The notes: generated by a model from the letters alone, not told the origin. A DNA stretch of 64,000 nt from Vicinamibacteria bacterium (GCA_964291235.2 OZ219816.1:128001-192000), one strand, 5' to 3'; shown: positions 35,136-64,000, counted from the first letter of the stretch. Translations and numbers: made by a program.

Positions 35136-35186
35136 CGCCGCCGATCCTAGCAGCGTCCCGGGGGCCGGATATCTTTCGCTCCGTAC

Positions 35187-36392: not shown

Positions 36393-36409
36393 GCCGAAAC
36401 CTCGTTCCG

Positions 36410-46775: not shown

Positions 46776-49103
46776 TCAGAACCGGAACAGCCGGGTGAAC
46801 TTGACGATGAACGACTGGGTGTTCAGTTCCGGATACCCGGGGACCAGGGTGTCCCGGAGCGAGTTGTAAACCAGGTAGAGATCGCTTCCCGGTTCGTACT
46901 CCCAGCGGAACCGGACGTTCGTCGACAGGCTGCCCGCGGAGCTGTTGTACTGGAGGAACGCGGCCAGGAAACTGCGCGGCGAGACGGTGTAGTTGATCCG
47001 CGCGGCGAGCAGATTGGTGTCGTAGTCGCCCTCGGGCAGGGCAATCCAGTTGGCCGAGACGATCGGCTCGACGGTGAGGCGGGTCATGAGCTCGACGCGG
47101 CCGCGCCAGGCGAGTTCGCGGCGGGTCCCGGAGAAGAACCCGCCCTGCTGGTAGGCGAAGCCGCCCGACACCGGGCGCTGGGGGCCCGCCTGGTAGCTGA
47201 GCCGCACGTAGTCGAAGTCGTACTCGCCGGGCGTCACCCCCAGGTCGTCGCTCAGCGAAAACGACTCGCTCAGCACCTCACGGTTCCGGGTGGCGTTCAC
47301 GTTGAAGCTGTCCCCGTTCTCGAATTCCATGTCGTAGCGGAAGCCGAAGATGCGGGTCTCGAGTTCGCCCTCGTTATCCGTCGTGTAGTCCACGCTGCCG
47401 ATCCAGCCCAGCTTGCGGAGCCAGGAGATCGAATGCGGCCGCGGACTGAAGCGCGCTTCGGCGTAGTTCCGCTGGAAATCCCGGCGGCGCAGGAATCCGA
47501 TCCCGGGATCGAAGTCGTCCCCGACCACCAGGCGCTCGGCCTGTACCCCGTAACGGTCGCCGTTGTAGTCGAGCTGACCGAGGTAGCTCAGCCCGGTCTG
47601 GTCCTCGAGCTCGTTCTGGGTCCAGGCCGCGTAGCTGCGGATGTCCAGGTTCTCGAAAAAGCCGAACCGGGCGTCCATCCCGTAGGCGAAGTTCCGGCCC
47701 AGGCCGCCTTCGGTGTGCGAGCGATAGGTTCCCATCACGCCGACCGTGCTGCGGTTCAGGATGTCGCGCTTCAGCCGGAGGACGGAGAAATCCGTCTCCG
47801 GGGAGCCGGCGGCAGCACTCTCGCCGCTGCGCATCGCGATCGCGCCCACGTTGTATTCGCCGAGCCTTCCCGTCACCCGGGCTCCCCCAGTGATGGGCAC
47901 CGCCTGGCCGGCCTCGATGCCGATGCGGCGGCTGAAGAACAGCACCGGGGTGCTGCTCGGCGGCCCGAAGCTGCGTGTGGACCCGGGCGGCGCGCCGCGG
48001 CCCGTCGTGCCGAACTCGAAGATCCCCTGGCCTTCCAGGAAGAACTCGCGCTTTTCGGGGAAGAAGAGGCTGAACCGCGTCAGGTTGATCTGCTGGGCGT
48101 CGGCCTCGACCTGGGCGAAGTCGGTGTTGTAGGTGAGATCGGCGGTGAGCCCGCTGGTGATCCCCACCTTCGCGTCCAGCCCGAAGTCCCCGCCGAAGTC
48201 GCGGTCGAGCGACCCGGCCTCGATCCGGGCGCCCGCGGCGTCACCGATGAGATACGGCTTCACCTCGACCGTCCGGGAACTGGCAGGCGCTTCGAGTCCC
48301 ACCAGGGTGCCCGCCGAGCTGATCTTGGTGATCGCCCGCGGGCCGAGCGCGGCCGGCACCTGGGTCAGGTAGGACATCTCGTTCTTCCAGCGCACCACCC
48401 GGCGGAAGTTGATGCCCCAGACCTGCTGTCCCCCGGTTGCGTAGCGCAGGGTCTTGAACGGGATGCGCATCTCCATGGTCCAGCCGTTCTCGAAGCGCGC
48501 CGCCTTGGAGTCCCAGACCGCGGTCCAGTCGCGGTTCACGCCGCGCTCGTCCACGATTAGGCCGTCGAAGAAGCCGCCGATCGGATTCAGGTAGAAGAAG
48601 AAGGCGTTCCGGCGGTCATAGAACGTGTCCAGAATGACGGCGAGGTTCGCGTTGTTGAAGATGCCGAAGTGGTCCCGCCGCATTTCGGTGGCCACGATCC
48701 GGTCCGGTTCGGAGTCCCAGCACCGGCCGGCGATGTACACCGCATCGTCGTCGAAGAACACCCAGACCTCGGTGTCTTCGGTGGCTGGTTCCCCCTCGAG
48801 CGGGAGCGCCTGGATGAAGCCGCTCACTCCCGGAACGCGGTCGTAGATTCCGTCGTCGAGTCGGCCGTCGAGTTCGAAAGGTCCCTCGAGTCGGGTGGCG
48901 CGCATGGTGGCGCCGCCGACATCGTCCCGGCGGACCATCTCGGGGAGATCGGGCGGCGCCGGGCCGCGGACCACGAATTCCGGCTCCGGCGTCGCCCCCT
49001 GGCCGTCCTGGCGCTCCCCGAGTGCTCCCGTCTGCCCCAGGGAAGAGGCAGGCGCGATCAGGGCGGAGGCAACGAGAACGAAGCGGAACGCGTGGCGGGA
49101 CAA
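46776..49103 (-). CDS. CBM9-like + DUF5916 putative outer-membrane protein, paralog A
   Basis: Signal peptide, LDGRLDD, DTFYDRRN, WT.E.RIPF..LRY, WGINF.R, NTDFAQVEAD..INLTRFSLFFPEKREFFLEG, C-terminal KFTRLFRF. TTG start. Confidence 0.85.
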   Translation of the reverse strand: MSRHAFRFVLVASALIAPASSLGQTGALGERQDGQGATPEPEFVVRGPAPPDLPEMVRRDDVGGATMRATRLEGPFELDGRLDDGIYDRVPGVSGFIQALPLEGEPATEDTEVWVFFDDDAVYIAGRCWDSEPDRIVATEMRRDHFGIFNNANLAVILDTFYDRRNAFFFYLNPIGGFFDGLIVDERGVNRDWTAVWDSKAARFENGWTMEMRIPFKTLRYATGGQQVWGINFRRVVRWKNEMSYLTQVPAALGPRAITKISSAGTLVGLEAPASSRTVEVKPYLIGDAAGARIEAGSLDRDFGGDFGLDAKVGITSGLTADLTYNTDFAQVEADAQQINLTRFSLFFPEKREFFLEGQGIFEFGTTGRGAPPGSTRSFGPPSSTPVLFFSRRIGIEAGQAVPITGGARVTGRLGEYNVGAIAMRSGESAAAGSPETDFSVLRLKRDILNRSTVGVMGTYRSHTEGGLGRNFAYGMDARFGFFENLDIRSYAAWTQNELEDQTGLSYLGQLDYNGDRYGVQAERLVVGDDFDPGIGFLRRRDFQRNYAEARFSPRPHSISWLRKLGWIGSVDYTTDNEGELETRIFGFRYDMEFENGDSFNVNATRNREVLSESFSLSDDLGVTPGEYDFDYVRLSYQAGPQRPVSGGFAYQQGGFFSGTRRELAWRGRVELMTRLTVEPIVSANWIALPEGDYDTNLLAARINYTVSPRSFLAAFLQYNSSAGSLSTNVRFRWEYEPGSDLYLVYNSLRDTLVPGYPELNTQSFIVKFTRLFRF

Positions 49104-49152
49104 GAGCGGGGACTCGGGCGGCGGAACTCTACGCCGGGCTGGCGTCCGGCGG

Positions 49153-51486
49153 TCAGAACCGGAAGAGCCGGGTGAACTTGACGATGAAGGACTGGGTGTT
49201 CAGTTCGGGGTATCCGGGCGCCAGGGTGTCCCGCAGCGAGTTGTAAACCACGTAGAGGTCGCTGCCCGGTTCGTATTCCCAACGGAAGCGGACGTTCGTG
49301 GAGAGGCTGTTCGCGGAGGTGTTGTACTGGAGGAACGCCGCGACAAAACTGCGGGGTGAGAGCGTGTAGTTGACCCGGGACGCGATCAGATTGGTGTCGT
49401 AGTCGCCGGTCGGCAGGTCGATCCAGTTCATCGAGACGGTGGGCTCGAGGGAGAAGCGGGTCGTCACCTCGACCCGTCCGCGCCATGCCGCCTCGCGGCG
49501 CATCCCCGAGAAGAAGCCCCCCTGCTGGAAGGCGAAGTTTCCCGAGATGGGACGCTGCGGCCCCGCCTGGTAGGCGACCCGGACGTGATCGAAGTCGTAC
49601 GGACCCACCCCCACGCCGATCCCGTCGTCCTCGTCCAGAAGGAACTCTTCGCTGAGCACCTCGTGGTTCCGGGCGGCGTCCACGTTGAGCCGGTCGCCGT
49701 TTTCGAGTTCGACCTCCGTCCGCAGTTGGAGAATTCGGGTCTCGAGGACAGCCTCGTTATCGGTGGTGTAGTCGACGCTGCCAGTCCAGCCGATCTGGCG
49801 CAGCCAGGAGATCGAGTGCGGCCGGGGGCTGAAGCGCGCTTCGGCGTAGTTGCGCTGGAAATCCCGGCGGCGCAGGAACCCGATGCCGGGATCGAAGCCG
49901 TCGCCAACCACGAGCCGTTCGGTCTTGAGCCCGTAGCGGTCGCCGTTGTACTCGAGCTGGCCCAGATAGCTCATCCCGGTCTCGTCCTCGAGTTCGTTCT
50001 GGGTCCAGGCGGCGTAGCTACGGATGTCGAGGTTCTCGAAGAGACCGAAGCGGGCGTCCATCCCGTAGGCGAAGTTCCGTCCCAACCCGCTGGCGCCGTG
50101 GGAGCGGTAGGTGCCCATGACGCCCACGGTGCTGCGGTTCAGGATGTCGCGCTTCAGCCGCAGGGCCGAGAAGTCGGTCTCCGGGGCGCCCGCGGCGTTG
50201 TTCCCTCCGGTCCGGATGGCAAGCGCCCCGACCCCGAAGTCGCCGAGCTTGCCGGTCACCCGCCCACCGCCGAGAATCGGCACCATCTGGCCGTCGGCGA
50301 TCCCGATCTGGCGGCTGAAGAAGAGCACCGGGGTGCTGCTCGGCGGGCCGAAGCTGCGCGTCGATCCCGCCGGAGGGGCGCGGCTCGAAGTGCCGAAGCT
50401 GAAGGTCCCCTGCCCTTCGAGGAAGAACTCGCGCTTCTCGGGAAAGAAGAGGCTGAACCGCGTCAGGTTGATCTGCTGGGCGTCCGCCTCCACCTGGGCG
50501 AAGTCGGTGTTCCAGGTGAGGTCGGCGATCAGGCCGCTGGTGATCCCGACCTTGGCATCCACCCCGAAGTCGCCGCCGTAGTCCCGCTCCAGCCCGCCGG
50601 CACCGGCGCGGATCCCGGCGGCGTCCCCGATGAGGTACGGCTTCACCTCGACGGTCCGGGAACTGGCAGGCGCCTCCAGGCCCACGAGCGTCCCCGCCGA
50701 GCTGATCTTGGTGATGGCGCGGGGTCCGAGGGCCGTAGGAACCCCGGTGAGGAAGGACAGCTCGTTCTTCCAGCGCACGATACGGCGGAAGTTGATCCCC
50801 CAGACCTGAGGGCCTCCGCTCGCGTAGCGCAGCGTCTTGAACGGGATCCGCATCTCCATGGTCCAGCCGTTTTCGAACCGAGCCGCCCGGGAGTCCCAGA
50901 CCGCGGTCCAGTCGCGGTTGGGGGGATTCTCATCCGCGATGAGGCCGTCGAAGAACCCGCCGATCGGGTTCATGTAGAAGAAGAAGGCGTTCCGGCGGTC
51001 GTAGAAGGTGTCCAGGATGACCGCGAGGTTCTCGTTGTTGAAGATGCCGAAGTTGTCCCGCCGCATCTCGGTCGCCACCATGCGGTGGGGCTGGCTGTCC
51101 CAGCACCTGCCGGCGATGTACACCGCTTCGTCGTCGTAGAAGATCCAGACGTCGGTCGGCTCGGTAGCCGGTTCGCCTTCGAGCGGCAGCGCCTGGATGA
51201 AACCGCCCACCCCGGGCACCCGTTCGTAGATCGCGTCGTCGAGGCGGCCGTCCAGCTCGAGCGGCTCGGTGAGGCGGGTGGCGCGCATGGTGGCGCCCCC
51301 GGCGTCGTCGCGCCGGACCATCTCGGGGAGATCGGGCGGTGCCGGGCCGCGGACCACGAATGCGGGCTCGGGGGCCTCGCCTTGGCCGTCCTGCCGATCG
51401 CCGGGTTCTCCCGTCTGCGCCCGCGGGGCGACCGGCCAAATCAGGGTGGAGGCGGCGAGAACGAAGCGGAAGGCGCGGCGGGACAA
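49153..51486 (-). CDS. CBM9-like + DUF5916 putative outer-membrane protein, paralog B
   Basis: Same motifs, colinear with A and C. TTG start. Confidence 0.85.
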   Translation of the reverse strand: MSRRAFRFVLAASTLIWPVAPRAQTGEPGDRQDGQGEAPEPAFVVRGPAPPDLPEMVRRDDAGGATMRATRLTEPLELDGRLDDAIYERVPGVGGFIQALPLEGEPATEPTDVWIFYDDEAVYIAGRCWDSQPHRMVATEMRRDNFGIFNNENLAVILDTFYDRRNAFFFYMNPIGGFFDGLIADENPPNRDWTAVWDSRAARFENGWTMEMRIPFKTLRYASGGPQVWGINFRRIVRWKNELSFLTGVPTALGPRAITKISSAGTLVGLEAPASSRTVEVKPYLIGDAAGIRAGAGGLERDYGGDFGVDAKVGITSGLIADLTWNTDFAQVEADAQQINLTRFSLFFPEKREFFLEGQGTFSFGTSSRAPPAGSTRSFGPPSSTPVLFFSRQIGIADGQMVPILGGGRVTGKLGDFGVGALAIRTGGNNAAGAPETDFSALRLKRDILNRSTVGVMGTYRSHGASGLGRNFAYGMDARFGLFENLDIRSYAAWTQNELEDETGMSYLGQLEYNGDRYGLKTERLVVGDGFDPGIGFLRRRDFQRNYAEARFSPRPHSISWLRQIGWTGSVDYTTDNEAVLETRILQLRTEVELENGDRLNVDAARNHEVLSEEFLLDEDDGIGVGVGPYDFDHVRVAYQAGPQRPISGNFAFQQGGFFSGMRREAAWRGRVEVTTRFSLEPTVSMNWIDLPTGDYDTNLIASRVNYTLSPRSFVAAFLQYNTSANSLSTNVRFRWEYEPGSDLYVVYNSLRDTLAPGYPELNTQSFIVKFTRLFRF

Positions 51487-51590
51487 CAGCGGGAACTCGG
51501 GCGGCGGAACTCTACGCCGGGCTGCGGCGCCGCGATGCCGGGGTGAGGTCGGCCCGGTTTTCGCGGTGGGGGCTCCCGTGAGTGTGGGCT

Positions 51591-51781
51591 ACCAAGGCTG
51601 CGAAGGGCCCCGCCGAGAGGGGAACCATCGTGGCGCTGGGGGGACCGTCCCGCCGCCCCGCTTCGCGGGGCTGTGCCGACCTGGAGGTCGGCGTTCCCGT
51701 GCCTGTGGCACCGTGGAGGTGGGGGGCGTTGTGCGTTTCGCGGCCCGGCGGGCCGCGATGCCGGCCAGAGGTCGGCGCTCC
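51591..51781. repeat. Solo copy of the ~120-bp REP-like unit plus a degenerate second hairpin
   Basis: 51591-51703 accaaggctg...gccgagaggggaacc...gccgacctggaggtcggcgttcccgtgcc. Degenerate hairpin at about 51759-51781. Confidence 0.85.
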
Positions 51782-51812
51782 TGGCGCTCCTCGGGCTCCT
51801 TGCGTTCCCTGC

Positions 51813-54146
51813 CTAGAACCGGAACAGACGGGTGAACTTGACGATGAACGACTGGGTGTTCAGTTCGGGGTATCCGGGCGCCAGGGTGTCCCGCAGGGAG
51901 TTGTAAACCACGTAGAAGTCGCTGCCCGGCTGGTACTCCCAGCGGAAGCGCACATTCGTGGAGAGGCTGTTCGCGGCGGTGTTGTATTGCAAGAACCCCG
52001 CGAGGAAGCTGCGGGGCGAGAGCGTGTAGGTGATCCGGGACGCGATCAGGCTGGTGTCGTAGTCGCCGGTCGGCAGGTCGATCCAGTTCATCGAGACGCC
52101 GGGCTCGAGGGAGAAGCGCGTCGTCACCTCCACCCGGCCGCGCCACGCCGCCTCCCGGCGGGTCCCGGAGAAAAACCCGCCCTGCTGGAAGGCGAAGTTC
52201 CCGGAGATCGGCCGCTGCGGGCCGGCCTGGTAGCTGACCCGGAAGTGATCGAAGTCGTATGGACCCGCCCCCACGCCGATCCCCTCGTCCTCGTCTAGCA
52301 GGAACGCTTCGCTCAGCACCTCGTGGTTCCGGGCGGCGTTCAGGTTGAGCCGGTCCCCGTTCTCGAGTTCGACGTCGGTACGCAGGGAGAAGATCCGGGT
52401 CTCGAGGACGGATTCGTTGTCGGTGGTGTAGTCCACGCTGCCGGTCCAGCCGATCTTGCGCAGCCAGGAGATGGAGTGCGGCCGGGGGCTGAAGCGCGCC
52501 TCGGCGTAGTTCCGCTGGAAGTCCCGGCGGCGCAGGAACCCGATTCCCGGATCGAATCCGTCGCCGACCACGAGCCGTTCCGTCTTGAGCCCGTATCGGT
52601 CGCCGTTGTAGTCGAACTGGCCGAGATAGCTCATTCCGGTCTCGTCTTCGAGTTCGTTCTGCGTCCAGGCGGCGTAGGCCTGGATGTCGAGGTTCTCGAA
52701 GAGACCGAAGCGGGCGTCCATCCCGTAGGCGAAGTTCCGTCCCAGTCCGCTTTGGGTGTGAGAGCGATAGGTGCCCATGACGCCCACCGTGCTGCGGTTC
52801 AGGATGTCGCGCTTCAGCCGCAGGACCGAGAAGTCGGTCTCCGGAGCGCCCGCGGCGCTGTTCGCGCCGCTGCGGATCGCGAGTGCCCCGACGCCAAAGT
52901 CCCCGAGTTTCCCGGTCACCCGACCTCCGCCGAGGATCGGCACTACCTGGCCGCCGGCAATCCCGATCTGGCGGCTGAAGAAGAGCACCGGAGTGCTGCT
53001 CGGCTGGCCGAAGCTGCGCGTGGATCCGGACGGCGGCGCCCGCGAGGCGGTGCCGAAGGTGAAGATCCCCTGCCCTTCGAGGAAGAACTCCCGCTTTTCC
53101 GGGAAGAAGAGGCTGAAGCGGGTGAGGTTGATCTGCTGGGCGTCCGCCTCCACCTGGGCGAAGTCGGTGTTCCAGGTGAGATCGGCGGTGAGTCCGCTGG
53201 TGATCCCCACCTTCGCGTCCACTCCGAAGTCACTGCCGTAGTTCCGTTCCAGCCCGCCGCCGTCGGCTCGGATGCCGGCGCCGTCGCCGATCAGGTAGGG
53301 CTTGACCTCGACGGTGCGCGAGCTGGCCGGCGCCTCGACGCCCACCAGGGTGCCCGCCGAACTCACCTTGGTGATGGCGCGGGGCCCCATGGCGGCGGGA
53401 AGCCGGGTCAGATAGGAGTACTCGTTCTTCCAGCGCACGATGCGGCGAAAGTTGATCCCCCAGACCTGGGGACCGCCGCCGGCATAGCGCAGCGTCTTGA
53501 ACGGGATCGCCATCTCCATGGTCCAGCCGTTTTCGAACCGGGCTGCCCGGGAGTCCCAGACCGCCGTCCAGTCGCGGTTGATGTTCAACTCGTCCACGAT
53601 CAGGCCGTCGAAGAACCCGCCGAGCGGGTTCAGGTAGAAGAAGAAGGCGTTCCGGCGGTCGTAGAAGGTGTCGAGGATGACCGCGAGGTTCTCGTTGTTG
53701 TGGATGCCGAAGTGGTCGCGCCGCATTTCGGTGGCCAGCATCCGGTCGGGCTGGCTGTCCCAGCAGCGGCCGGCGACGTAGAGCGTCTCGTCGTCGTAGA
53801 AGACCCAGACCTCGGTCGCCTCGGTGGCGGGCTCGCCCTCGAGGGGCAGTCCCTGGATGAAACCGCCCACCCCGGGCACCCGGTCGTAGATGGCGTCGTC
53901 AAGACGGCCGTCTAGCTCGAACGGCTCGGTGAGGCGGGTGGCGCGCATGGTGGCGCCGCCGGCGTCGTCGCGCCGGACCATCTCGGGAAGGTCCGGAGGC
54001 GCGGGGCCGCGTACGACGGTCCCAGACGCCGAGGCTGAGCCTTGGCCGTCCTGGGGTTCGTCGCGCTGGGCGGACTGCGCCCACAGGGAGGCTGGAACGA
54101 TCAGGGCCGCGCCGGCGAGGACGAAGCGGGACGCCTGACGGGACAA
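51813..54146 (-). CDS. CBM9-like + DUF5916 putative outer-membrane protein, paralog C
   Basis: Same motifs. TTG start 7 nt after TAGAGT. Confidence 0.85.
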   Translation of the reverse strand: MSRQASRFVLAGAALIVPASLWAQSAQRDEPQDGQGSASASGTVVRGPAPPDLPEMVRRDDAGGATMRATRLTEPFELDGRLDDAIYDRVPGVGGFIQGLPLEGEPATEATEVWVFYDDETLYVAGRCWDSQPDRMLATEMRRDHFGIHNNENLAVILDTFYDRRNAFFFYLNPLGGFFDGLIVDELNINRDWTAVWDSRAARFENGWTMEMAIPFKTLRYAGGGPQVWGINFRRIVRWKNEYSYLTRLPAAMGPRAITKVSSAGTLVGVEAPASSRTVEVKPYLIGDGAGIRADGGGLERNYGSDFGVDAKVGITSGLTADLTWNTDFAQVEADAQQINLTRFSLFFPEKREFFLEGQGIFTFGTASRAPPSGSTRSFGQPSSTPVLFFSRQIGIAGGQVVPILGGGRVTGKLGDFGVGALAIRSGANSAAGAPETDFSVLRLKRDILNRSTVGVMGTYRSHTQSGLGRNFAYGMDARFGLFENLDIQAYAAWTQNELEDETGMSYLGQFDYNGDRYGLKTERLVVGDGFDPGIGFLRRRDFQRNYAEARFSPRPHSISWLRKIGWTGSVDYTTDNESVLETRIFSLRTDVELENGDRLNLNAARNHEVLSEAFLLDEDEGIGVGAGPYDFDHFRVSYQAGPQRPISGNFAFQQGGFFSGTRREAAWRGRVEVTTRFSLEPGVSMNWIDLPTGDYDTSLIASRITYTLSPRSFLAGFLQYNTAANSLSTNVRFRWEYQPGSDFYVVYNSLRDTLAPGYPELNTQSFIVKFTRLFRF

Positions 54147-54180
54147 GGGAGGAACTCTAAGGACCGGGAGGCGGAGCCTG

Positions 54181-56517
54181 TCAGAACCGGAAAAGGCGGG
54201 TGAACTTGACGATGAAGGCCTGGGTGTTCAGTTCGGGGTACCCGGGCATCAAGGTGTCACGGAGTGAGTTGTACACGAGATAGAAGTCGCTGCCCGGCTG
54301 GTACTCCCAGCGAAACCGGACGTTCGTGGAGAGGCTGTTCGCGGCGCTGTTGTACTGCAGGAACGCGGCGAGAAAGCTGCGGGGAGACAGGTTGTAGTTG
54401 ATCCTCGAAGCGACCAGCCGGGTGTCGTAGTTGCCGTCCGGAAGGGCGATCCAGTTCAGGGAAATGATGGGCTCGACGATGAGGTGGGGAACGACCTCGA
54501 GCCGGCCGCGCCAGGCGAGCTCGCGCCGGGTCCCCGAGAAGAACCCGCCCTGCTGATACGAGAAGGTCCCCGAGATCGGCCGCTGGGGCCCGGCCCGGTA
54601 GCTGAGGCGGGCGTAGTCGAAGTCGTGGGGTCCGGTAGCCACTGCAAGGTCGCCGGCCAGACGGAATTCCTCGTGAAGCACCTCCCGGTTGCGCGCCGCC
54701 TGGAACTGGGCGCTGTCCCCGTTCTCCAACTCGACGTCGGAGCGGAGCGCGAAGATCCGGGTTTCCAGATTCCCGTTGGTGTCCGTGGTGTAGTCGAGAC
54801 TGCCGGTCCCACCGATCTTCCGCAGCCAGGAGATCGAGCGGGGCCGGGGGCTGAAGCGCGCCTCCGCGTAGTTGCGCCGGAAGTCCCGGCGGCGCAGGAA
54901 GCCGAGCCCGGGATCGAAGCCCTCGCCGACCACCAGCCGCTCGAACTGGAGTCCGTAACGGTCGGCCTGGTAGTCGAACTGGCCGCGGTAGCTCATGCCG
55001 GTCCGGTCCTCATATTCGTTCTTCGTCCAGGCCGCGTAGCTGCGAATGTCGAGGTTCTCGTAGAGCCCGAAGCGCGCGTCCATCCCGTAGGCGGTGTTGC
55101 TTCCCAGACCGTCTGCGGCGCCCGAGCGGTAGGTGCCCATCACCCCGACCGTGCTGCGGCCCAGGATGTCCCGCTTCAGCCGGAATACCGAAAAGTCGGT
55201 TTCGGGGGCGCCCGCGGCAAGGCTCTCGCCGCTACGGATCGCGAGCGCGCCGACGCCGAAGTCGCCGATCTTGCCCGTCACCCGGGCGCCGCCGCGGATC
55301 GGCGCCACCTGGTTTCCGGCGATGCCGATCCGGCGGCTGAAGAAGAGGAGCGGGACGCTGCTCGGCGCTCCGAAGCGCCGGCTCGAGGCGCGCGGGGTGC
55401 GCTCCGAGGTTCCGAAGGCGAAGAGCCCCTGCCCTTCGAGAAAGAACTCGCGCTTTTCGGGGAAGAAGAGGCTGAACCGGGTCAGGTTGATCTGCTGGGC
55501 ATCCGCCTCGACCTGGGCGAAGTCGGTGTTCCAGGTCAGGTCGGCGGTGAGCCCGCTGGTGATGCCGACCTTGGCGTCCACCCCGAAATCGCCCCCGAAG
55601 TCCCGGTCGAGGGCGCCGCTCTCGGCCTGGGCCGCGGCGGCGTCCCCCGTGAGGTACGGCTTCACCTCGATGGTCCGCGAACTGGGCGGCGCCTCGAGGC
55701 CGACCAGGGTCGCATAGGAACTCACCTTGGTGATCGACCAGATCCCGAGGGCGGCCGGGAGTTGGGTCAGGTAGGAGATTTCGTTCTTCCAGCGGACGAC
55801 CCGGCGGAAGTTGATGCCCCACACCTGTGGGCCCGCGGCGGGGTAGCGGAGGGTCTTGAACGGAAACCGCAGTTCGGTCGTCCAGCCGTTCTCGAACCAG
55901 GCGGTCCGGGAGTCCCACACCGCGGTCCAGTCGCGGTTGAAGTTCCGCTCGTCGGTGATGAGGCCGTCGAAGAACCCGCCCAGGGGGTTGAGGTAGAAGA
56001 TGAACGCGTTCCGGCGGTCGTAGAAGGTGTCGAAGGTGACGGCCAGGTGCTGGTTGAGCCAGATGCTCCCGTGGTCGCGCCGGAGTTCGGTGGCCACGAT
56101 CCGGTGGGGCTGGGTGTCCCAGGCGCGGCCGGCGATGTAGATCGCCTCGTCGTCGAAGAAGACCCAGACCTCGGTCTTTTCGGTGGCCGGCGCTCCTTCG
56201 AGCGGCTCGGTCTGGATGAAGTCGCTGATTCCGGGAACCCGCTCGTAGATGGCTTCATCGAGGCGGCCGTCGAAGTCGAGCGGCTCCTCCAGGCGGACGG
56301 CCCGAATGGTGGCGCCACCCTGGTCGTCGCGCCGGATCATCGCCGGGGGGTCCGGCGGCGCGGGACCGTGGATCACGGGAGCCGGCCCTTGAGCCCGAGT
56401 TGATGGCTCCTGCTGAGAAGCCCCGGCCTGCGGTGGCTTCCCGGGCGGCGACGGGACTGCGGTAGCCGGGACGACGAGCAGCCCGGCGGCCAGCGCGAGG
56501 GCGCTGGAACCGGCCAC
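54181..56517 (-). CDS. CBM9-like + DUF5916 putative outer-membrane protein, paralog D
   Basis: Same motifs. GTG start. Most divergent member of the A-D group. Confidence 0.85.
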   Translation of the reverse strand: MAGSSALALAAGLLVVPATAVPSPPGKPPQAGASQQEPSTRAQGPAPVIHGPAPPDPPAMIRRDDQGGATIRAVRLEEPLDFDGRLDEAIYERVPGISDFIQTEPLEGAPATEKTEVWVFFDDEAIYIAGRAWDTQPHRIVATELRRDHGSIWLNQHLAVTFDTFYDRRNAFIFYLNPLGGFFDGLITDERNFNRDWTAVWDSRTAWFENGWTTELRFPFKTLRYPAAGPQVWGINFRRVVRWKNEISYLTQLPAALGIWSITKVSSYATLVGLEAPPSSRTIEVKPYLTGDAAAAQAESGALDRDFGGDFGVDAKVGITSGLTADLTWNTDFAQVEADAQQINLTRFSLFFPEKREFFLEGQGLFAFGTSERTPRASSRRFGAPSSVPLLFFSRRIGIAGNQVAPIRGGARVTGKIGDFGVGALAIRSGESLAAGAPETDFSVFRLKRDILGRSTVGVMGTYRSGAADGLGSNTAYGMDARFGLYENLDIRSYAAWTKNEYEDRTGMSYRGQFDYQADRYGLQFERLVVGEGFDPGLGFLRRRDFRRNYAEARFSPRPRSISWLRKIGGTGSLDYTTDTNGNLETRIFALRSDVELENGDSAQFQAARNREVLHEEFRLAGDLAVATGPHDFDYARLSYRAGPQRPISGTFSYQQGGFFSGTRRELAWRGRLEVVPHLIVEPIISLNWIALPDGNYDTRLVASRINYNLSPRSFLAAFLQYNSAANSLSTNVRFRWEYQPGSDFYLVYNSLRDTLMPGYPELNTQAFIVKFTRLFRF

Positions 56518-56546
56518 AGCCCGGGATCCTGGTCCGGACCCCCGGA

Positions 56547-58958
56547 TCAGAAACGGAACAGGCGGGTGAACTTGACGACCAGCGCCCGGTCGGTCAGCCC
56601 CGACAGCGCGTCGTCCCCGTCGCGGTTCGTGCTGAAGACGACGAACACGTCGCTGCCCGGCGAGTATTCCCAGCGGAAGCGCACGTTGGCCGACATCAGT
56701 TGGGCGGCCGAGTTGTACTGAACGAGCGCCCCGACGAAGCTCTGCGGGGAGACGGTGTAGGTGGCGCGGAGACGGGTCACCTGGGCCTGCACTTCGCCGC
56801 CCGGCACCTCGATCCAGTTGAGGCTGATGTTCGGCTCCATGGAAAAGCGCCGGTTCACCTCGGCGCGTCCCCAGTAGCTCACTTCCTGGCGGGTGCCCCC
56901 GAAGAAGTCCCCGAACTCGTAGCGGACATACCCGGAGACAGCGCGGTGTGTTCCCAACCAGAAGCGAATACCGCTACGGGCGAAGCGGTAGTTGCCAGCC
57001 GGAACCGCAACGTCGCTGGAGAGGTCGAAACCGTCGAGGAGATGTTCCTCCGTCATCGAGTGCGTCACCACCAGGCGGTCGCTGCTCTCGAAGATGGCGC
57101 GTCCCTCGAAGGTGTATTCCCGCGTCTCCATCTCCCCGTCCAGCCGGTCGTACTGATTCGCGTCGGCCTTGAACTCGAACTGGCGGATGGCCTCGATGCC
57201 GCGTGGCCGCGGCGCCAGCGTGACGGACCCTCCGTTCTTGGTGAAGTCCCGCCGGCGGACGAAACCCATCCCCGGGTTGAAGTCGTCGCCGAGGTAGAGA
57301 CGCTCGGCCGAGACATCGAACAGGTCGGTGTCGTAGCGAAACTGTCCCATGTAGCTGGCCGCCTGATGTCCGGCCTCGACGCCGGGCTCGCTGGTGGCCA
57401 TGTAGAAGGTGTTGATCCGGATGTTCTCGCTCGGCGCGAAGTTGCCGTCCACCCCATAGAGGGAGTTGGACCCCGTCCCGTCGGAGTTGATGTTGCGGTG
57501 CGTCGCAATGACCCCGATGTTGGACCGCGAGAAGAGGTCCCGCTTCATCCGGAAGGCGCTGAAATTGGTGCTCTCCACGTCGAGGCCCGGCACGCCCTCC
57601 GTCTGGATGTTCATGAGTCCCATCTGGTAGGCGCCGGCCCGGCCGTGGAGCCGGGCGCCGCCCAGGATCGGCACCGCGCTGCCGCCGGAGATCCCGATGG
57701 ACCGGCTGAAGAACGGGATCGGAGCGTCGGACGGGCCCTGGCCGCCGAAGGCGCGGGTCTGCCGGCCACCGAAATCGAACACCCCCTGTCCCTCGAGGAA
57801 GAACTCGCGCTTTTCCGGGAAGAAGAGGCTGAAGCGACTCAGGTTGACCTGGGTCTCGTCGTCTTCCACCTGCGCGAAGTCGGTGTTCCAGGTGACGTCG
57901 GCGGTGAGTCCGTCCGTCACCCCGAACTTGAAATCGGCGCCGACGTCGCCGGACCACTCGTTCAGGGTGTCGTTCAGCGGAGCGTGTTGCTGGGAACCGA
58001 TCGCGTAGGGCTTGAGCTCCATCCGCCGCGATCCCGCGGGAGCTTCGAGCCCCACGAGCGTCGCCGCGTTGGAGAGACGGATCAGCGCTTCGCGGTTGTA
58101 GGCCTGCGGGGTGGCGGTGAAGAACACCTTCTCGTTCCGGTGCTTGATGTTGCGCTGGAAATTGATGCCCCAGAGCTGGGACCCTCCCGCCGCGTAGCGG
58201 AGCGACCGGAAGGGGATCCGGATTTCCGTGGTCCAACCGCCCTCGACGATCTCGCTCTTGGCCCACCAGACGGTGTTCCAGTCGCTGTTGGTGTTCCGTT
58301 CGTCGGTCACCTGGGCGTCGTAGAGGGCGCCGAGCGGGTTGGTGTGGAACAAGAAGCCGTTCCGGCGGTCGTAGAAGGTGTCGAGGACGATCTGGAAGCT
58401 GTCGTTCCAGCCGATGCTCATGTGGTCGCGGCGCATTTCGCCGGCCATCAACTCCTCCGCGTGTTCCTCTTCCATCTCCGCCGCGATGTAGAGGTTCTCC
58501 GCGTCGTAGAGCACCCAGACGCGGGTGGACTCCGACGCCGGAGCGCCCTCGTTCGGCTCCTGCTGGAGGAAGCCGTCCGCGGCCGGCACCTGGTCGTAGA
58601 CCGGATCGTCGAGTACCCCGTCCACGGTGAGTGGCTCGGCGAGCCGGAAGGCGCGGAGCGTTACCCGGCCGTCGGCGTCGCGGCTGACCGCTTCTCCGGC
58701 CTTCGGCGCGGGCGGACCGAGGATGCGGCTCGCCATCGCCGAAGGGACCGGCCCCTGTTGGTCTTCCGCCAGCCGGCCGCCGCCGCGGAGCGGGATCGCC
58801 AGATCATCCGAATCGTCCTGGAGCTGCCGATCCGCGGGCGGGGGAACGGGTCCCTCAGGGCCGGCGGGCACGGGGTTGCCGGCGAACGAAACGCCGGCTA
58901 GCAACACCGAGAGTCCCGCCACGGCAACGCCTCGCGAAAGAAATTGAAATGACGGCAA
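56547..58958 (-). CDS. CBM9-like + DUF5916 putative outer-membrane protein, paralog E
   Basis: Same motifs (NTDFAQVEDDETQVNLSRF). Start reassigned to TTG 58958 because its context gggtaccgcctcTTGCCG matches paralog F (gggtaccgcttcTTGCCG). Confidence 0.85.
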   Translation of the reverse strand: MPSFQFLSRGVAVAGLSVLLAGVSFAGNPVPAGPEGPVPPPADRQLQDDSDDLAIPLRGGGRLAEDQQGPVPSAMASRILGPPAPKAGEAVSRDADGRVTLRAFRLAEPLTVDGVLDDPVYDQVPAADGFLQQEPNEGAPASESTRVWVLYDAENLYIAAEMEEEHAEELMAGEMRRDHMSIGWNDSFQIVLDTFYDRRNGFLFHTNPLGALYDAQVTDERNTNSDWNTVWWAKSEIVEGGWTTEIRIPFRSLRYAAGGSQLWGINFQRNIKHRNEKVFFTATPQAYNREALIRLSNAATLVGLEAPAGSRRMELKPYAIGSQQHAPLNDTLNEWSGDVGADFKFGVTDGLTADVTWNTDFAQVEDDETQVNLSRFSLFFPEKREFFLEGQGVFDFGGRQTRAFGGQGPSDAPIPFFSRSIGISGGSAVPILGGARLHGRAGAYQMGLMNIQTEGVPGLDVESTNFSAFRMKRDLFSRSNIGVIATHRNINSDGTGSNSLYGVDGNFAPSENIRINTFYMATSEPGVEAGHQAASYMGQFRYDTDLFDVSAERLYLGDDFNPGMGFVRRRDFTKNGGSVTLAPRPRGIEAIRQFEFKADANQYDRLDGEMETREYTFEGRAIFESSDRLVVTHSMTEEHLLDGFDLSSDVAVPAGNYRFARSGIRFWLGTHRAVSGYVRYEFGDFFGGTRQEVSYWGRAEVNRRFSMEPNISLNWIEVPGGEVQAQVTRLRATYTVSPQSFVGALVQYNSAAQLMSANVRFRWEYSPGSDVFVVFSTNRDGDDALSGLTDRALVVKFTRLFRF

Positions 58959-59067
58959 GAGGCGGTACCCGGGAACGCTGTTCCCCGTGCAGGAAGCGAA
59001 GACCACCCGCCATTTTAGCAGCCGGACCCGGTGGCCCTCCACCGCGAAACGGCGGCCGGAGGGCGTG

Positions 59068-61467
59068 TCAGAACCGGAAGAGGCGGGTGAATTTGACGAC
59101 CAGCGCGCGGTCGCTGAGACCGGAGAGGCCGTCGTTCCCGTCCCGGTTGGTGCTGAACACCACGAACAGGTCGCTGCCGGGGGAGTACTCCCAGCGGAAG
59201 CGCACGTTCGCCGAATAGAGCTCTGCCGCCGAGTTGTACTGGACGAGCGCCCCCAGGAAGCTCCGTGGTGAGACGGTGTAGGTGACGCGGATGCGGCTCA
59301 CCTGCGCCCGCACCTCGCCGCCGGGAACTTCAATCCAGTTCAGGCTGATGTTGGGCTCGAGGGAGAAGCGCTGGTTCACCTCGGCGCGTCCCATGTAGCT
59401 CACTTCCTGCCGGGTGCCGCCGAAGAAGTTGCCCCACTCGTAACGCAGGAATCCCGAAACCCGCCGGTGGGAGCCCATCCGGATCCGGACCCCCGTTCGC
59501 GAAAACCGGTAGTTGCCGGCGGGCACCGCGACGTCGCTGGAGAGATCGAACCCCTCGAGGAGGCGCTCATCGGTGATGGTGTGGTCGAACATGAGGCGAT
59601 CGCTGCTCTCGAGGATCGCGCGGGCGTCGAAGCGGTATTCACGCGTCTCCAGCTCGCCGTCGGGCCGGTCGTACTGGTTCGCCTCCGCCTTGAACTCGAG
59701 CTGACGGATCGCCTGGATCCCGCGCGGGCGCGGCGCGAGCTGGAACGAACCGCCGTTCTTCGTGAAGTCCCTGCGGCGGACGAAGCCCATTCCCGGGTTG
59801 AAGTCCCCGCCGAGATAGAGCCTTTCGGCGGTGACGTCGATCAGGTCGGTGTCGTAGCGGAACTGGCCCATGTAGCTCGCGGCGTTATGTCCCGTCTCCA
59901 CTTCCGGCTCGCTGGTCGCCATGTAGAAGGTGTTGAAGCGGATGTTGTCCGTCGGGGCGAAGTTCCCGTCCACGCCGTAGAGGGAGTTGGATCCGGAACC
60001 GTCGGCGCTGATGTTCCGGTGGGTGGCGATGACGCCGATGTTGGACCGTGCGAAGAGGTCGCGTTTCATCCGGAAGGCGCTGAAGTTCGTGCTCTCCACG
60101 TCGAGTCCGCCGACATCGCCGGTCTGAATGTTCATCAGGCCCATCTGGTAGGCGCCGGCCCGGCCGTGGAGGCGGGCGCCGCCCAGAATCGGTACCGCGC
60201 TGCCCCCGGAAATGCCGATGGACCGGCTGAAGAACGGGATGGGGACGTCGGTCGGCCCGCCGAAGAAACGGGTTTCGCGGCCGCCGAAGTCGAACACCCC
60301 CTGCCCCTCGAGGAAGAACTCGCGCTTTTCCGGATAGAACAGGCTGAAACGGCTCAGGTTTACCTGGGTTTCGTCGTCTTCGACCTGCGCGAAGTCGGTG
60401 TTCCAGGTGACGTCGGCAGTGAGCCCGTCGGTGACGCCGAACTTGAAGTCGGCACCGACATCCCCGGACCACTCGTTGTTGATGTCGCTCAGGGGAACGT
60501 GGCTCTGGGAGCCGATCGCGTACGGCTTCAGCTCCATCCGCCGCGAGCCGGCCGGCGCCTCGAGGCCCACGAGCGTCGCCGCGTTCGAGAGCCGCAACAG
60601 CGCGAACCGGTCGTACGCCTGGGGCGTCGGGGTGAAGAACACCTGTTCGTTGTTGTGCTTGATGCGGCGGCGGAAGTTGATTCCCCAGAGCTGGGGCCCA
60701 CCGGCGGCGTAGCGCAGCGACCGGAACGGGATCCGGATCTCGACGGTGTAGCGGTTCTCGAGACGGTGGGTGTCCACCCACCAGACGGTGTTCCAGTCGC
60801 TGTTGGTGTTCCGTTCGTCCGTCACCTGCGCGTCGAAGAGCGCGCCCAGCGCGTTCGTATGGAACAAGAAGCCGTTGCGCCGGTCGTAGAAGGTGTCGAT
60901 GACGATCGAGAAGCTGTCGCCCCAGTCGATATTCCGCTGGTCGCGCCGCATCTCGTTGGCCATCAGCAGCTCCGGGTGGTCTTCTTCCAGATCGGCGGCG
61001 ATGTAGATGCTGTCGGCGTCGTAGAACACCCAGACCCGGGTGGACTCCGACGCCGGGTCGCCTTCGATGGGCTCCTGTTGGGTGAATCCCTCCGCCGCCG
61101 GCACCTGGTCGTACACCGGGTCGTCGAGCACCCCGTCCACGGTGAGGGGCTCGGAGAGCCGGAAGGCCCGGAGCGTCACCCCGCCGTCGGCGCCCCGGCT
61201 CACGGCTTCGTCGGCGGCGGGCGCCGGCGGTCCGAGGATGCGGTCGGCCATCGCCGAGTCGAGCCCCTGCTGGCCCTCGGCGAGCCGGCCCGAGCCACGC
61301 GAGGACAGCCCGAGGTCGTCCTGCCCGTCCTGCACGCGGCGGTCCGCGGGCGGAACCGGTCCGTCCTGGGCAAAGGCCGCGTTACCGGCGACCAACGCAG
61401 GACCGGTCAGCAGGAACCCCAGCGCGGCTGCGACGGCGCCTCGCAACGCTTTGGGAGGAATCGGCAA
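59068..61467 (-). CDS. CBM9-like + DUF5916 putative outer-membrane protein, paralog F
   Basis: Same motifs. TTG start and signal peptide. Confidence 0.85.
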   Translation of the reverse strand: MPIPPKALRGAVAAALGFLLTGPALVAGNAAFAQDGPVPPADRRVQDGQDDLGLSSRGSGRLAEGQQGLDSAMADRILGPPAPAADEAVSRGADGGVTLRAFRLSEPLTVDGVLDDPVYDQVPAAEGFTQQEPIEGDPASESTRVWVFYDADSIYIAADLEEDHPELLMANEMRRDQRNIDWGDSFSIVIDTFYDRRNGFLFHTNALGALFDAQVTDERNTNSDWNTVWWVDTHRLENRYTVEIRIPFRSLRYAAGGPQLWGINFRRRIKHNNEQVFFTPTPQAYDRFALLRLSNAATLVGLEAPAGSRRMELKPYAIGSQSHVPLSDINNEWSGDVGADFKFGVTDGLTADVTWNTDFAQVEDDETQVNLSRFSLFYPEKREFFLEGQGVFDFGGRETRFFGGPTDVPIPFFSRSIGISGGSAVPILGGARLHGRAGAYQMGLMNIQTGDVGGLDVESTNFSAFRMKRDLFARSNIGVIATHRNISADGSGSNSLYGVDGNFAPTDNIRFNTFYMATSEPEVETGHNAASYMGQFRYDTDLIDVTAERLYLGGDFNPGMGFVRRRDFTKNGGSFQLAPRPRGIQAIRQLEFKAEANQYDRPDGELETREYRFDARAILESSDRLMFDHTITDERLLEGFDLSSDVAVPAGNYRFSRTGVRIRMGSHRRVSGFLRYEWGNFFGGTRQEVSYMGRAEVNQRFSLEPNISLNWIEVPGGEVRAQVSRIRVTYTVSPRSFLGALVQYNSAAELYSANVRFRWEYSPGSDLFVVFSTNRDGNDGLSGLSDRALVVKFTRLFRF

Positions 61468-61599
61468 GAAGCGGTACCCCGGGGCGCGTCCCCACTCTCG
61501 GAGGCGCAGGGTGACAGTCAGTTTACGGAAAAGCCGGTCCCGGTCCCAACGCGTTCCGCCGGCCTGCCGGAGCGGCCGAAACCGGGGTTCGGAACCCCG

Positions 61600-64000
61600 T
61601 CAGAACCGGAACAGCCGGGTGAACTTGACGACGAGCGCCCGGTCGCTGAGACCGGAGAGACCGTCGTCGCCGTCCCGGTTCGAGCTCAAGACCACGAACA
61701 GGTCGCTGCCGGGGGAGTACTCCCAGCGGTAGCGGACGTTGGCCGAAAACAGTTGGGCGGCCGAGTTGTACTGGACCAGCGCCCCCAGGAAGCTGCGGGG
61801 CGAGACGGTATAGGTGGCGCGGAGGCGGCTCACCTGCGCCCGGACGTCGCCCGCGGGCATCGCGATCCAGTTCAGGCTGACGTTCGGCTCGAAGGAGAAG
61901 CGCTGGTTGATCTCGGCGCGTCCCCAGTAGCCCAGCTCCTGCCGGGTTCCCCCGAAGAAGTCCCCGAACTCGTAGCGGACCATTCCCGAGACCTTGCGGT
62001 GGGAGCCCATCCGGACCCGGACCCCGGCCCGGGCGAATCGGTAGCTCCCGGCGGGCACTGCGACCTCGTCCGAGAGGTCGAAACCCTCGAGGAGGTGCTC
62101 CTCGGTGACGGTGTAGCCGAGCATGAGGCGGTCGCTGCTCTCGAACAGGGTGTTGGCCTCGAACTCGTACTCCCGGGTCTCCAGCTCGCCGCCGGGACGC
62201 TGGTAGTTGTTCACCCGTGCCTGGAACTCCAACTGCCGGACCGCCTCGATGCCGCGAGGGCGCGGCGAGAACTGGAAGGAGCCGCTGTTCTTGGTGAAGT
62301 TCCGCCGGCGCACGAAACCCATCCCCGGGTTGAAGTCCTCGCCGAGATAGAGCCGCCCGGCGGTCACGTCGATCAGGTCGGTGTCGTAGCGGAACTGGCC
62401 CATGTAGCTGGCCGCCTGGTGTCCCGTCTCGACCCCGGGCTCGCTCGTCGCCATGTAGTAGGTGGTGATCCGGAGGTGATCCGTGGGGTTGAAGTTCCCG
62501 TCCATGCCGTAGAGCGAGTTGGACCCCGTGCCGTCGGCGCCCACGTTCCGGTGGGTCGCGATGACGCCGATGTTGGACCGGGAGAAGAGGTCGCGCTTCA
62601 CCCGGAAGGCGCTGAAATTCGTGCCCTCCACGTCCACACCCGGCGCGGTGCCGGTCTGGATGTTCATGAGCCCCATCTGGTAGGCGCCGGCCCGGCCGTG
62701 GAGCCGGGCGCCCCCGAGAATGGGCACCGCGCTGCCCCGGAGATCCCGATGGAGCGGCTGAAGAAGGGGATGGGAGTGTCGGAGGAACCCCCGCCCCCGA
62801 AGGCCCGCGTCTGCCGGCCTCCAAAGTCGAACACCCCCTGCCCTTCAAGGAAGAACTCGCGCTTTTCGGGGTAGAAGAGGCTGAAACGGCTCAGGTTGAC
62901 CTGGGTCTCGTCGTCCTCCACCTGCGCGAAGTCGGTGTTCCAGGTGACGTCGGCGGTGAGCCCGTCGGTGACCCCGAACTTGAAGTCGGCGCCGACGTCG
63001 CCGGACCACTCGTCGTTGATGTCCCTCAGGGGAGCGTCCGTCTGCGACCCGATGGCGTAGGGCTTCAGCTCCATCCGCCGCGAGCCGGCGGGGGCCTCGA
63101 GCCCGACGAGCGTCGCCGCGTTCGAGAGCCGGTTCAGCCCGTTCATGTTGAACGCCTGGGGCGTCGGAGTGAGAAAGGCCCGCTCGTTCGTGTGCTTGAT
63201 GAGGCGGCGAAAGTTGATGCCCCAGAGCTGGGGTCCGCCCGCGGCGTAGCGGAGCGAGCGGAACGGGATCCGCATCTCCATGGTCCAGCCGTCCTCGACG
63301 CGCTCGGTCCGGACCCACCACACGGTGTTCCAGTCGGAGTTCGTGTTCCGCTCGTCGGAGACCTGGGCGTCATAGAGCGCCCCCACCGCGTTGGTGTGGA
63401 ACAAGAATCCGTTCCGCCGGTCGTAGAAGGTGTCGAGGATGACCGAGAAGCTGTCGCCCCAGCCGATGTTCCGCTGGTCGCGGCGCATCTCGTTCGCCCG
63501 CAGGAGTTCCGGGTGGTGCTCTTCCAACTTGGCGGCGATGTAGAGGCTGTCCGCGTCGTAGAGCACCCAGACAAGAGTGGATTCCGAGACGGGAGCACCC
63601 TCGTTGGGTTCCTGTTGTACGAAACCCTCGGCTGCCGGCACCTGGTCGTACGCCGGGTCGTCCAGCACGCCGTCCAGAGTGAGCGGCTCCGCGAGCCGGA
63701 ACGCGCGGATCGTTACCCGGCCGTCGGCGTCACGACTGACCGCCTCGTTCGCGGCCGGCGCGGGCGGACCCAGGATGCGCTCGGCAATCGACGAACTGAG
63801 GTCCTGCTGGCGCTCGGCGACGCGGCCCGAGCCGCGCGCGGGAAATCCGAGGTCGCCCGGTTTGTCCTGGGCGTCCTGAACCCGGCGATCCTCCGGAGGT
63901 GAAATGACCGGCCCATCCTCGGCGGTGGCCGCACCGGCGGCCAACAGCGCTCCCGCCAGGAGGAGCAGGGCCTGGCCGACAGTCCTCCGGGCCCCCTCGC
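61600..64000 (-). pseudogene. CBM9-like + DUF5916 paralog G: frameshifted, 5' end beyond the window
   Basis: ORFs 62664-63944 and 61600-62727 join into one E/F-like gene if one base is added to the C4 run at 62735-62738 (C5 in paralog F at 60203-60207). The frame stays open to the window edge. May be a sequencing error. Confidence 0.8.

Follow-up and report, generated by a model that had tools for sequence, protein, structure and literature searches.

Among the described β-barrels of the outer membrane, TonB-dependent transporters (TBDTs) have 22 strands and a plug in the N-terminal part of the chain, ushers combine 24 strands with a periplasmic N-terminal β-domain and a plug that interrupts the barrel sequence, and the classical trimeric porins have 16-18 strands. 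A further group, the proteins with a DUF5916 domain and an N-terminal CBM9_1 domain, is automatically annotated as 'DUF5916 domain-containing protein' and has no assigned function. Here we analysed a 64,000-nt stretch of DNA from Vicinamibacteria bacterium (hereafter the window; G000:C2:128001-192000), which belongs to a two-contig genome of 3.45 Mb with 68% G+C. The window carries a tandem array of seven genes that share the two-domain plan of the last group, and their products could equally well prove right or wrong as what we take them for, namely TonB-independent, plugged outer-membrane channels or translocons of diverged cargo specificity. The array is a new set within a catalogued, uncharacterised family, and the interesting part of it is the question at the level of the family. 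A previous sequence-only reading of the window had already called the family uncharacterised, and our literature searches agreed with this, as no paper was found on DUF5916, PF19313/IPR045670 or Marinacidobacterium, nor, among the papers listed and judged by title and abstract, any relevant one on a family 9 binding domain together with the outer membrane or a β-barrel.

The seven paralogues are co-oriented and lie head to tail on the minus strand, from position 46776 to 7 nt past the end of the window. Four of them form subfamily I: copy A (46776-49103, 775 aa; open reading frame, Pfam match and AlphaFold2 model), copy B (49153-51486, 777 aa; orthologues in relatives 91-93% identical), copy C (51813-54146, 777 aa; orthologues 87-90% identical) and copy D (54181-56517, 778 aa), which is the most diverged of the four (73% identity to A-C) and has its own clade genus-wide. 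Subfamily II consists of copy E (56547-59042), copy F (59068-61467, 799 aa) and copy G, which occupies the window from 61600 onward and probably starts with a TTG that lies 7 nt outside it. The open frame of E comprises 831 aa; relatives align to it from residues 12-26 where the N-terminal part is reached and more distant genera from residues 68-86, and the start is likely the TTG at 58958, giving a protein of about 803 aa. The intergenic spacers were 25-49 nt long, with the exceptions of C/B (326 nt) and G/F (132 nt). The C-terminus VKFTRLFRF was common to all seven copies, QVEADAQQINLT marked A-D and QVEDDETQVNLS marked E-G, and protein identity was 73-88% inside A-D and 77-80% inside E-G, as against 44-48% across the two groups. 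Signal peptides on the copies were judged by eye only.

The co-orientation with short spacers, the two subfamilies and the shared KFTRLFRF end had been noticed in the sequence-only reading and were all borne out. The same reading had counted at least seven genes running past the window edge; the edge is indeed crossed by G, but the number is exactly seven, as tblastn and Pfam searches of the whole genome revealed no eighth tandem copy. These searches gave a genome total of 15 family genes, the seven tandem ones and eight dispersed ones (33-37% identity, with one tandem pair among them). The dispersed pair (L092, G000:C1:1159505-1164204) contained the top scorers of the Pfam model, with 85-87 bits, and PhoD, peptidase S9/PD40 and FGE-sulfatase genes were present near it.

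The Pfam model DUF5916 (PF19313; gathering cut-off 22.6 bits) was matched above its cut-off by every copy, with 55.0 bits for A, 49.0 for B, 51.6 for C, 58.7 for D, 60.1 for E, 63.3 for F and 57.4 for the N-terminal part of G, each match being limited to profile positions 4-86 of 572, where a full-length match would span about 1-563. No Pfam match was obtained with the C-terminal 375 aa of G, and homology of the barrel part rests on the phmmer relatives and not on the Pfam model. The CBM9_1 model (PF06452; gathering cut-off 23.4 bits) was exceeded by E (28.9 bits), F (25.7) and G (24.6); A (19.2) and B (16.9) stayed below it, and C and D gave no match. The CBM9-like/DUF5916 label given to the array beforehand thus stands for DUF5916 in all seven copies, in partial form, and for CBM9_1 in E, F and G. 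NCBIfam contained no family for A or E, and a search of the PDB by sequence returned only CBM9 1i82 as a weak profile match (E 0.0056). The nearest Atlas clusters, mostly from Acidobacteriota, carried DUF5916 in 98-100% and CBM9_1 in 39-55%. Canonical full-length DUF5916 matches (180-243 bits) were found in other Acidobacteriota and none in this genome, whose array is a divergent branch and a seven-gene tandem set.

To describe the architecture, AlphaFold2 was run on copies A and F with an alignment of 78 sequences, and the predicted local distance difference test (pLDDT) was 89.4 for A and 88.6 for F, with a predicted template modelling score (pTM) of 0.86 for both. In the model of A, a signal peptide and a disordered linker are followed by a β-sandwich at residues 57-272 (48288-48935), a 6-residue gap and a barrel at residues 279-770 (46794-48269). 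The architecture of F is as in A, with the sandwich at 89-304, 24 strands at 311-794 and an insert at 356-426, and the barrel comprises ~24 long strands in both models. A β-barrel plus a β-sandwich had been expected from the sequence, and both appear in the two models; this predicted architecture is well supported. The two faces of the strands contained 73% and 39% apolar residues, a difference that arises partly by construction, as the more apolar face was chosen; the Kyte-Doolittle analysis of the strand faces was weak and uninformative, and the count of apolar residues was used in its place. Together with the signal peptide, the amphipathic strands and the aromatic C-terminal motif are BAM-type features, K768 inside the region of this motif is invariant in the family alignment, and the copies are probably outer-membrane proteins.

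Since the strand number is even and the C-terminal BAM-type signal is periplasmic, the N-terminal sandwich is predicted to be periplasmic and the insert to emerge from the barrel towards the outside. On this outer side are the longer connections (78, 15, 14, 10, 7 and 6 residues), and on the other are turns of 2-5 residues, with one exception of nine residues. Some relatives carry TolB_N/FlgO-like or β-helix N-terminal extensions, of which the TolB_N/FlgO-like ones were counted in favour of a periplasmic N-terminus. The sandwich is probably docked on the barrel, because the pTM is high and the linker has only six residues.

The best conserved part of the proteins is a non-strand insert of 78 residues that separates barrel strands 3 and 4, at residues 326-403 of A (47895-48128, minus strand). 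It bears the motif DFAQVE.D..Q.NL.RF.LFFPEKREFFLE ... FFSRRIG and accounts for nine of the 16 columns that are invariant in the 78-sequence alignment (D328, F329, D335, E350, R352, F354, F355, R392 and G395). Among the seven copies, 63% of the insert columns were invariant vs 33-38% in the other domains, and the insert is the only part recognised by the Pfam DUF5916 model. Ten structural alignments with TBDTs started at model residues 327-334 and, on the other side, in the N-terminal part of the TBDT chain; because the alignments begin at these two places, the models suggest that the insert occupies the part of the lumen that is taken up by the plug in TBDTs. A number of further alignments started at model residues 145-188, and part of the sandwich may be near the lumen too. 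The N-terminal domain had been proposed as the ligand-binding or plug domain; it does have a CBM9/DOMON fold, but the likelier plug is the insert.

The likeness to TBDTs is that of large plugged outer-membrane barrels. The barrel superposed on Cir (2hdf, Z 15.7) and BtuB (1nqe, Z 15.6) with a root-mean-square deviation (rmsd) of 4.3-4.7 Å over 366-375 residues, and the insert overlaid the plug-bearing N-terminal part of the TBDTs; however, the ~24 strands and the plug-like insertion after strand 3 differ from the 22 strands and the N-terminal plug domain of the latter. The Pfam matches of the seven copies included no Plug (PF07715), TonB_dep_Rec (PF00593), usher or porin domain. Sequence homology to TBDTs was rejected, as hhalign gave a probability of 0.3% when the family alignment was compared with 12 TBDTs from this genome. 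Ahead of the sandwich, the family consensus showed no conserved motif that might serve as a TonB box, none of the eight TonB_C matches of the genome lay beside a DUF5916 gene, and neither ExbBD nor SusD was present among the neighbours. An analogy with SusC arrays, drawn in the sequence-only reading, therefore fails on membership. The genome contained 27 TonB_dep_Rec, 21 Plug and 8 TonB_C matches, which leaves the family as its second-largest outer-membrane barrel family after TBDTs. Classical trimeric porins differ in strand number as well as in Pfam matches, and Porin_4, the one classical porin model searched, found no match in the genome.

The fold of the sandwich was matched by 4jpq, a putative carbohydrate-binding protein of Bacteroides (Z 20.7), and by the CBM9 of Thermotoga maritima Xyn10A (1i82; Z 18.9, rmsd 2.6 Å over 178 residues, Foldseek E 2.9e-8, TM 0.74), followed by the haem-binding DOMON-fold subunits EbdC (2ivf_C, Z 14.3) and NxrC (7b04_C, Z 12.3). 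The fold is thus shared with these proteins, but in the copies it is placed on a membrane barrel and not on a glycosidase or a redox enzyme. The residues that are invariant or almost so in the sandwich included no Met, His or Lys that could be a haem ligand. In 1i82, Trp71 and Trp175 form an aromatic clamp for the reducing ends of glycans. In the alignment of hidden Markov models, the Trp near chain position 70 of 1i82 faced a non-conserved acidic consensus column, and the alignment stopped at 152, so that the second Trp was not covered.

A survey of copy number and synteny, as proposed along with the first description of the locus, showed that the array is widespread among the relatives. Copy A was searched in 28 genomes of the taxonomic family at E <= 1e-130. 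All 15 other genomes of the genus had the array, with 2-14 matches, the lowest numbers coming from fragmented or incomplete assemblies; the genome with 14 matches was 10% contaminated and had the array twice. The 12 genomes of other genera gave 2-6 matches. Arrays could be extracted from 15 of the 28 genomes, five of the genus arrays being from near-complete assemblies. Seven copies were found in G008, G014, G004 and G001, six in G009, four in G018, three in G019 and two adjacent ones each in G020, G017, G022, G041, G024 and G043; in G042, two subfamily-II genes were accompanied by one subfamily-I gene about 460 kb away. The sister genera had 2-4 copies, with at least one of each subfamily.

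A maximum-likelihood tree was built from 62 array copies and three dispersed outgroups, the two halves of G being left out as too short. It contained two deep clades, with support of 100 and 99 in the Shimodaira-Hasegawa-like approximate likelihood ratio test (SH-aLRT), and, across the genus, one orthologue clade each for A, B, C, D and E, the resolution being lower for F and G. Orthologues were 87-95% identical and paralogues 73-88%. Within the subfamilies, the ratio of nonsynonymous to synonymous substitution rates (dN/dS) was 0.18-0.27, so the array appears to be under purifying selection. By these comparisons the seven genes are evidently old paralogues and not recent or artefactual copies, and the data point to a smaller ancestral set, with one gene per subfamily in most sister genera, that would have reached 3 + 4 copies ahead of speciation within the genus. 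The order of B and C was swapped in G008, G004 and G001 as compared with G000, G014 and G009. Within the swapped group, the arrays of G004 (L073 8450-13001) and G008 (L071 5650-8100) were interrupted by insertions of 2.4-6.7 kb, whose cargo (a YhcG-type PDDEXK nuclease, an N6-methylase fragment and a helix-turn-helix protein) consists of unrelated mobile or defence genes.

Beyond the taxonomic family, phmmer with copy A against 1.84 billion representatives returned 21,097 clusters (50% identity) at E <= 0.001 and 4,033 at E <= 1e-30. The family was present in all 41 genomes of an order sample (which includes the unpublished G033), with 4-25 matches per genome, 13-16 in near-complete genomes of the genus and 6-14 in sister genera. 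It was also present in 55 of 60 other Acidobacteriota genomes (the unpublished G092 and G067 included), mostly with 1-4 matches, five of them having 15 or more, and in none of 14 control genomes. An exceptional expansion, as had been supposed for this locus, is therefore less evident, since 4-25 matches per genome are common in the order.

Three minus-strand genes are located downstream of A, between the array and a symporter gene, and encode an ankyrin-repeat protein of 672 aa (40634-42652), a Tat-signal DUF1552 protein (42649-44103) and a PSD/DUF1592-family cytochrome-c protein (44100-46619). In the relatives, nothing is present between the array and the SDF symporter, and the three genes look like an insertion specific to this genome. 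A functional link between the array and these proteins was rejected, as none of 68 loci of relatives had the PSD or DUF1552 gene next to the array. Ankyrin-repeat proteins are a hallmark of sponge symbionts. Several close relatives bear isolate names of sponge or coral type. Further on, 32001-37660 encodes a PD40 plus amidohydrolase protein (1072 aa), a β-lactamase-fold protein and the Na:dicarboxylate (SDF) symporter. Four loci from three genera had the β-lactamase-fold protein and/or the PD40 plus amidohydrolase protein downstream of the array, and two genus loci had the symporter in addition; these genes may serve together in the scavenging of peptides or amino acids, or their synteny may merely be inherited. 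The neighbours of the seven dispersed loci were varied and included amidohydrolases, creatininase, a β-lactamase-fold protein, PhoD, peptidase S9, FGE-sulfatase and a Na/H exchanger. Control by BlaI/BlaR was rejected as well, the single BlaI gene of the genome being 60 kb from the nearest family member. Past the window end, about 4 kb upstream of G, the opposite (plus) strand carries genes for an HlyD-family adaptor and an AcrB-family pump (L069 6180-10548); they are preceded by a gene for a Tat-signal UDG-superfamily protein, with no evident link to the array.

With regard to expression signals, the motif TAGAGTTCC was found on the minus strand before copies A (49123-49131), B (51506-51514) and C (54151-54159), each time some 20 nt ahead of the TTG start. 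The window thus held three matches vs 0.16 expected, and all five genus arrays examined had two copies each near the starts of subfamily-I genes; the motif may be a duplicated -10-like promoter or leader element. No Shine-Dalgarno-like sequence was visible before the TTG starts of A, B and C. A scan of the array returned no promoter-like site and terminator-like sites at chance level, and nothing notable was seen among the repeats upstream of G.

If the copies are TonB-independent, plugged channels or translocons, each gene would give rise to a protein that is exported by Sec and inserted by BAM in the outer membrane, with its CBM9/DOMON-fold sandwich in the periplasm, joined by ~6 residues to the ~24-strand barrel, with short loops pointing outward and with the conserved 78-residue insert filling the lumen. 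The insert would then act as a gate and the sandwich as a binding or docking module on the periplasmic side. The ancestral set would have expanded to 3 + 4 before the genus species split, each copy being retained by purifying selection. The rank of the family after TBDTs and the missing Porin_4 match probably speak for a channel role, and the repertoire of channels or receptors proposed in the sequence-only reading remains the best guess for the function, though only as something we infer.

Several observations weigh against this reading. The strand count, the sidedness and the position of the insert in the lumen were deduced from the DSSP string and from the terminal residues of the structural alignments, not from coordinates. 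The covered Trp of the CBM9 sugar clamp is not conserved in the family, and the variation among the copies is spread evenly and not concentrated in loops, so that it does not point to a specificity site. Neither the array nor the dispersed loci examined had a conserved transport partner, and PSD or DUF1552 genes were beside the array in none of 68 loci of relatives. The synteny of the SDF symporter, the β-lactamase-fold protein and the PD40-amidohydrolase protein may be mere inheritance among kin. Enrichment of amidohydrolase or β-lactamase-fold genes near the eight DUF5916 loci was rejected as not significant, with 3, 3 and 5 of the 8 having one at 5, 10 and 15 kb (P 0.21, 0.48 and 0.18 in a placement test). 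Finally, the only metatranscriptome run contained 5% of the sampled words of the stretch, too few to bear on expression in either direction.

A role in export, which we consider somewhat unlikely, would make the copies translocons or anchors for a surface polymer such as an exopolysaccharide, a capsule or a glycoconjugate, where the CBM9-like domain holds the glycan and the plug is displaced in secretion, as in ushers, AlgE and Wzi. The plan of the copies is indeed like that of ushers, with 24 strands, a plug within the barrel sequence and an N-terminal β-domain; the alignments with PapC (2vqi, Z 15.2) and FimD (3ohn, Z 15.1) set in at the first barrel strand and cover model residues 277-278 to 738, a CBM9 fold is seen in the N-terminal domain, and one relative (P0060) has a β-helix N-terminal extension. 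On the other hand, the usher rmsd was high (6.5-7.0 Å), and the copies have no usher Pfam match, no C-terminal domains and no chaperone or pilin genes nearby. Neither glycosyltransferase, Wza/Wzc, chaperone or pilin genes nor any other pilus or glycan partner was found beside the array or the seven dispersed loci examined, and fifteen copies in a genome of 3.45 Mb are many for exporters.

It is also unlikely, in our view, that the copies are not transporters at all but outer-membrane enzymes or structural proteins, with D328, D335, E350, R352 and R392 of the insert as a catalytic or metal site; lipid or glycan remodelling and tethering of the outer membrane to the wall are possible roles of this kind. 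Such a site would account for the concentration of invariant charged residues in one 78-residue segment, the extracellular loops are very short (mostly 2-15 residues), unlike those of receptors, and TolB_N-like tethers occur in family members. However, no known outer-membrane enzyme was among the fold matches listed, and the long-term retention of seven diverged copies is more in keeping with diversified specificity than with one housekeeping enzyme.

Another arrangement, compatible with the other readings and in itself improbable, is that proteins of subfamilies I and II form an obligate hetero-complex, the array providing interchangeable partners. The tree separates the subfamilies as deep clades with good support, matches of both identity classes (71-100% and 46-49% to A) were present in 25 of the 28 family genomes, the exceptions (G002, G010 and G015) all being fragmented, and the two types were adjacent in eight of nine non-genus genomes examined in detail. 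This adjacency is explicable as a legacy of tandem duplication, though, and the separation of the two types by about 460 kb in G042 as well as the unequal copy numbers of 3 and 4 are at odds with an obligate pair.

The reality of the array was examined in four public runs (X1-X4) of one study, from at most three samples, each of which contained 81-87% of the sampled words of the stretch; the runs may include the source sample of the assembly and are thus a test of the consensus, not of the independence of the organism. The assembled sequence of copy G lacks 1 nt in a run of G at 62735-62738, and the gene is thereby broken in two. In all four runs, all contig depth had one extra base at this site, either a C behind 62734 or a T behind 62737; each variant accounts for about half of the depth, and the reading frame is restored by either of them, as Gly or Glu. 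As all contig depth has the extra base, the frameshift of G is most likely a consensus error at a polymorphic homopolymer, the population carrying seven intact genes, and a pseudogene is unsupported; the data suggest that the consensus step dropped the base where two alleles disagreed. Contigs bridged the D/E and E/F junctions in three of the four runs and A/B in two, the other junctions being absent from the listed pieces. Strain variants were seen in X1 and X4, where a 1-nt deletion at 49747 and a 1-nt insertion behind 49754 make a compensated local frame change in B. In X4 only, a 15-nt insertion was present behind 46527 in the PSD-family gene. That the array arose in the assembly, by collapse or concatenation of strain variants, is hardly conceivable and was rejected: although the source is a metagenome-assembled genome, the runs contain strain variants (about half of the compared contigs being 95-99% alike and not 99% or more) and some contigs have short-sided joints between paralogues, the protein sequences of the copies differ by 12-56%, the tree places them with one-to-one orthologues in arrays of independent assemblies (five of these from assemblies of 1 to about 20 contigs), run contigs span the three junctions named above, and every joint between paralogues has sides under 30 nt (20-28 nt) and was disregarded as shared conserved words.

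Returning to the plugged, TonB-independent channels, a bolder form of this idea, which we regard as rather doubtful, is that DUF5916 constitutes a distinct, unrecognised class of usher-built, plugged 24-strand translocons for TonB-independent nutrient passage, in which the genes of subfamilies I and II would make up a functional unit, multiplied in host-associated marine Acidobacteriota to match the compounds of sponge or coral hosts. As a single finding the array is modest, since the family is catalogued and multi-copy sets are common in the order. Nevertheless, the confident model with its CBM9 fold, ~24 strands and conserved internal insert provides a concrete hypothesis that is open to test by mutation, and it bears on outer-membrane transport in bacteria outside Proteobacteria. 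With its seven diverged but intact variants the array forms a natural series, useful for the mapping of specificity, and if the copies are channels, they would widen the range of organic solutes that cross the outer membrane of this host-associated marine bacterium.

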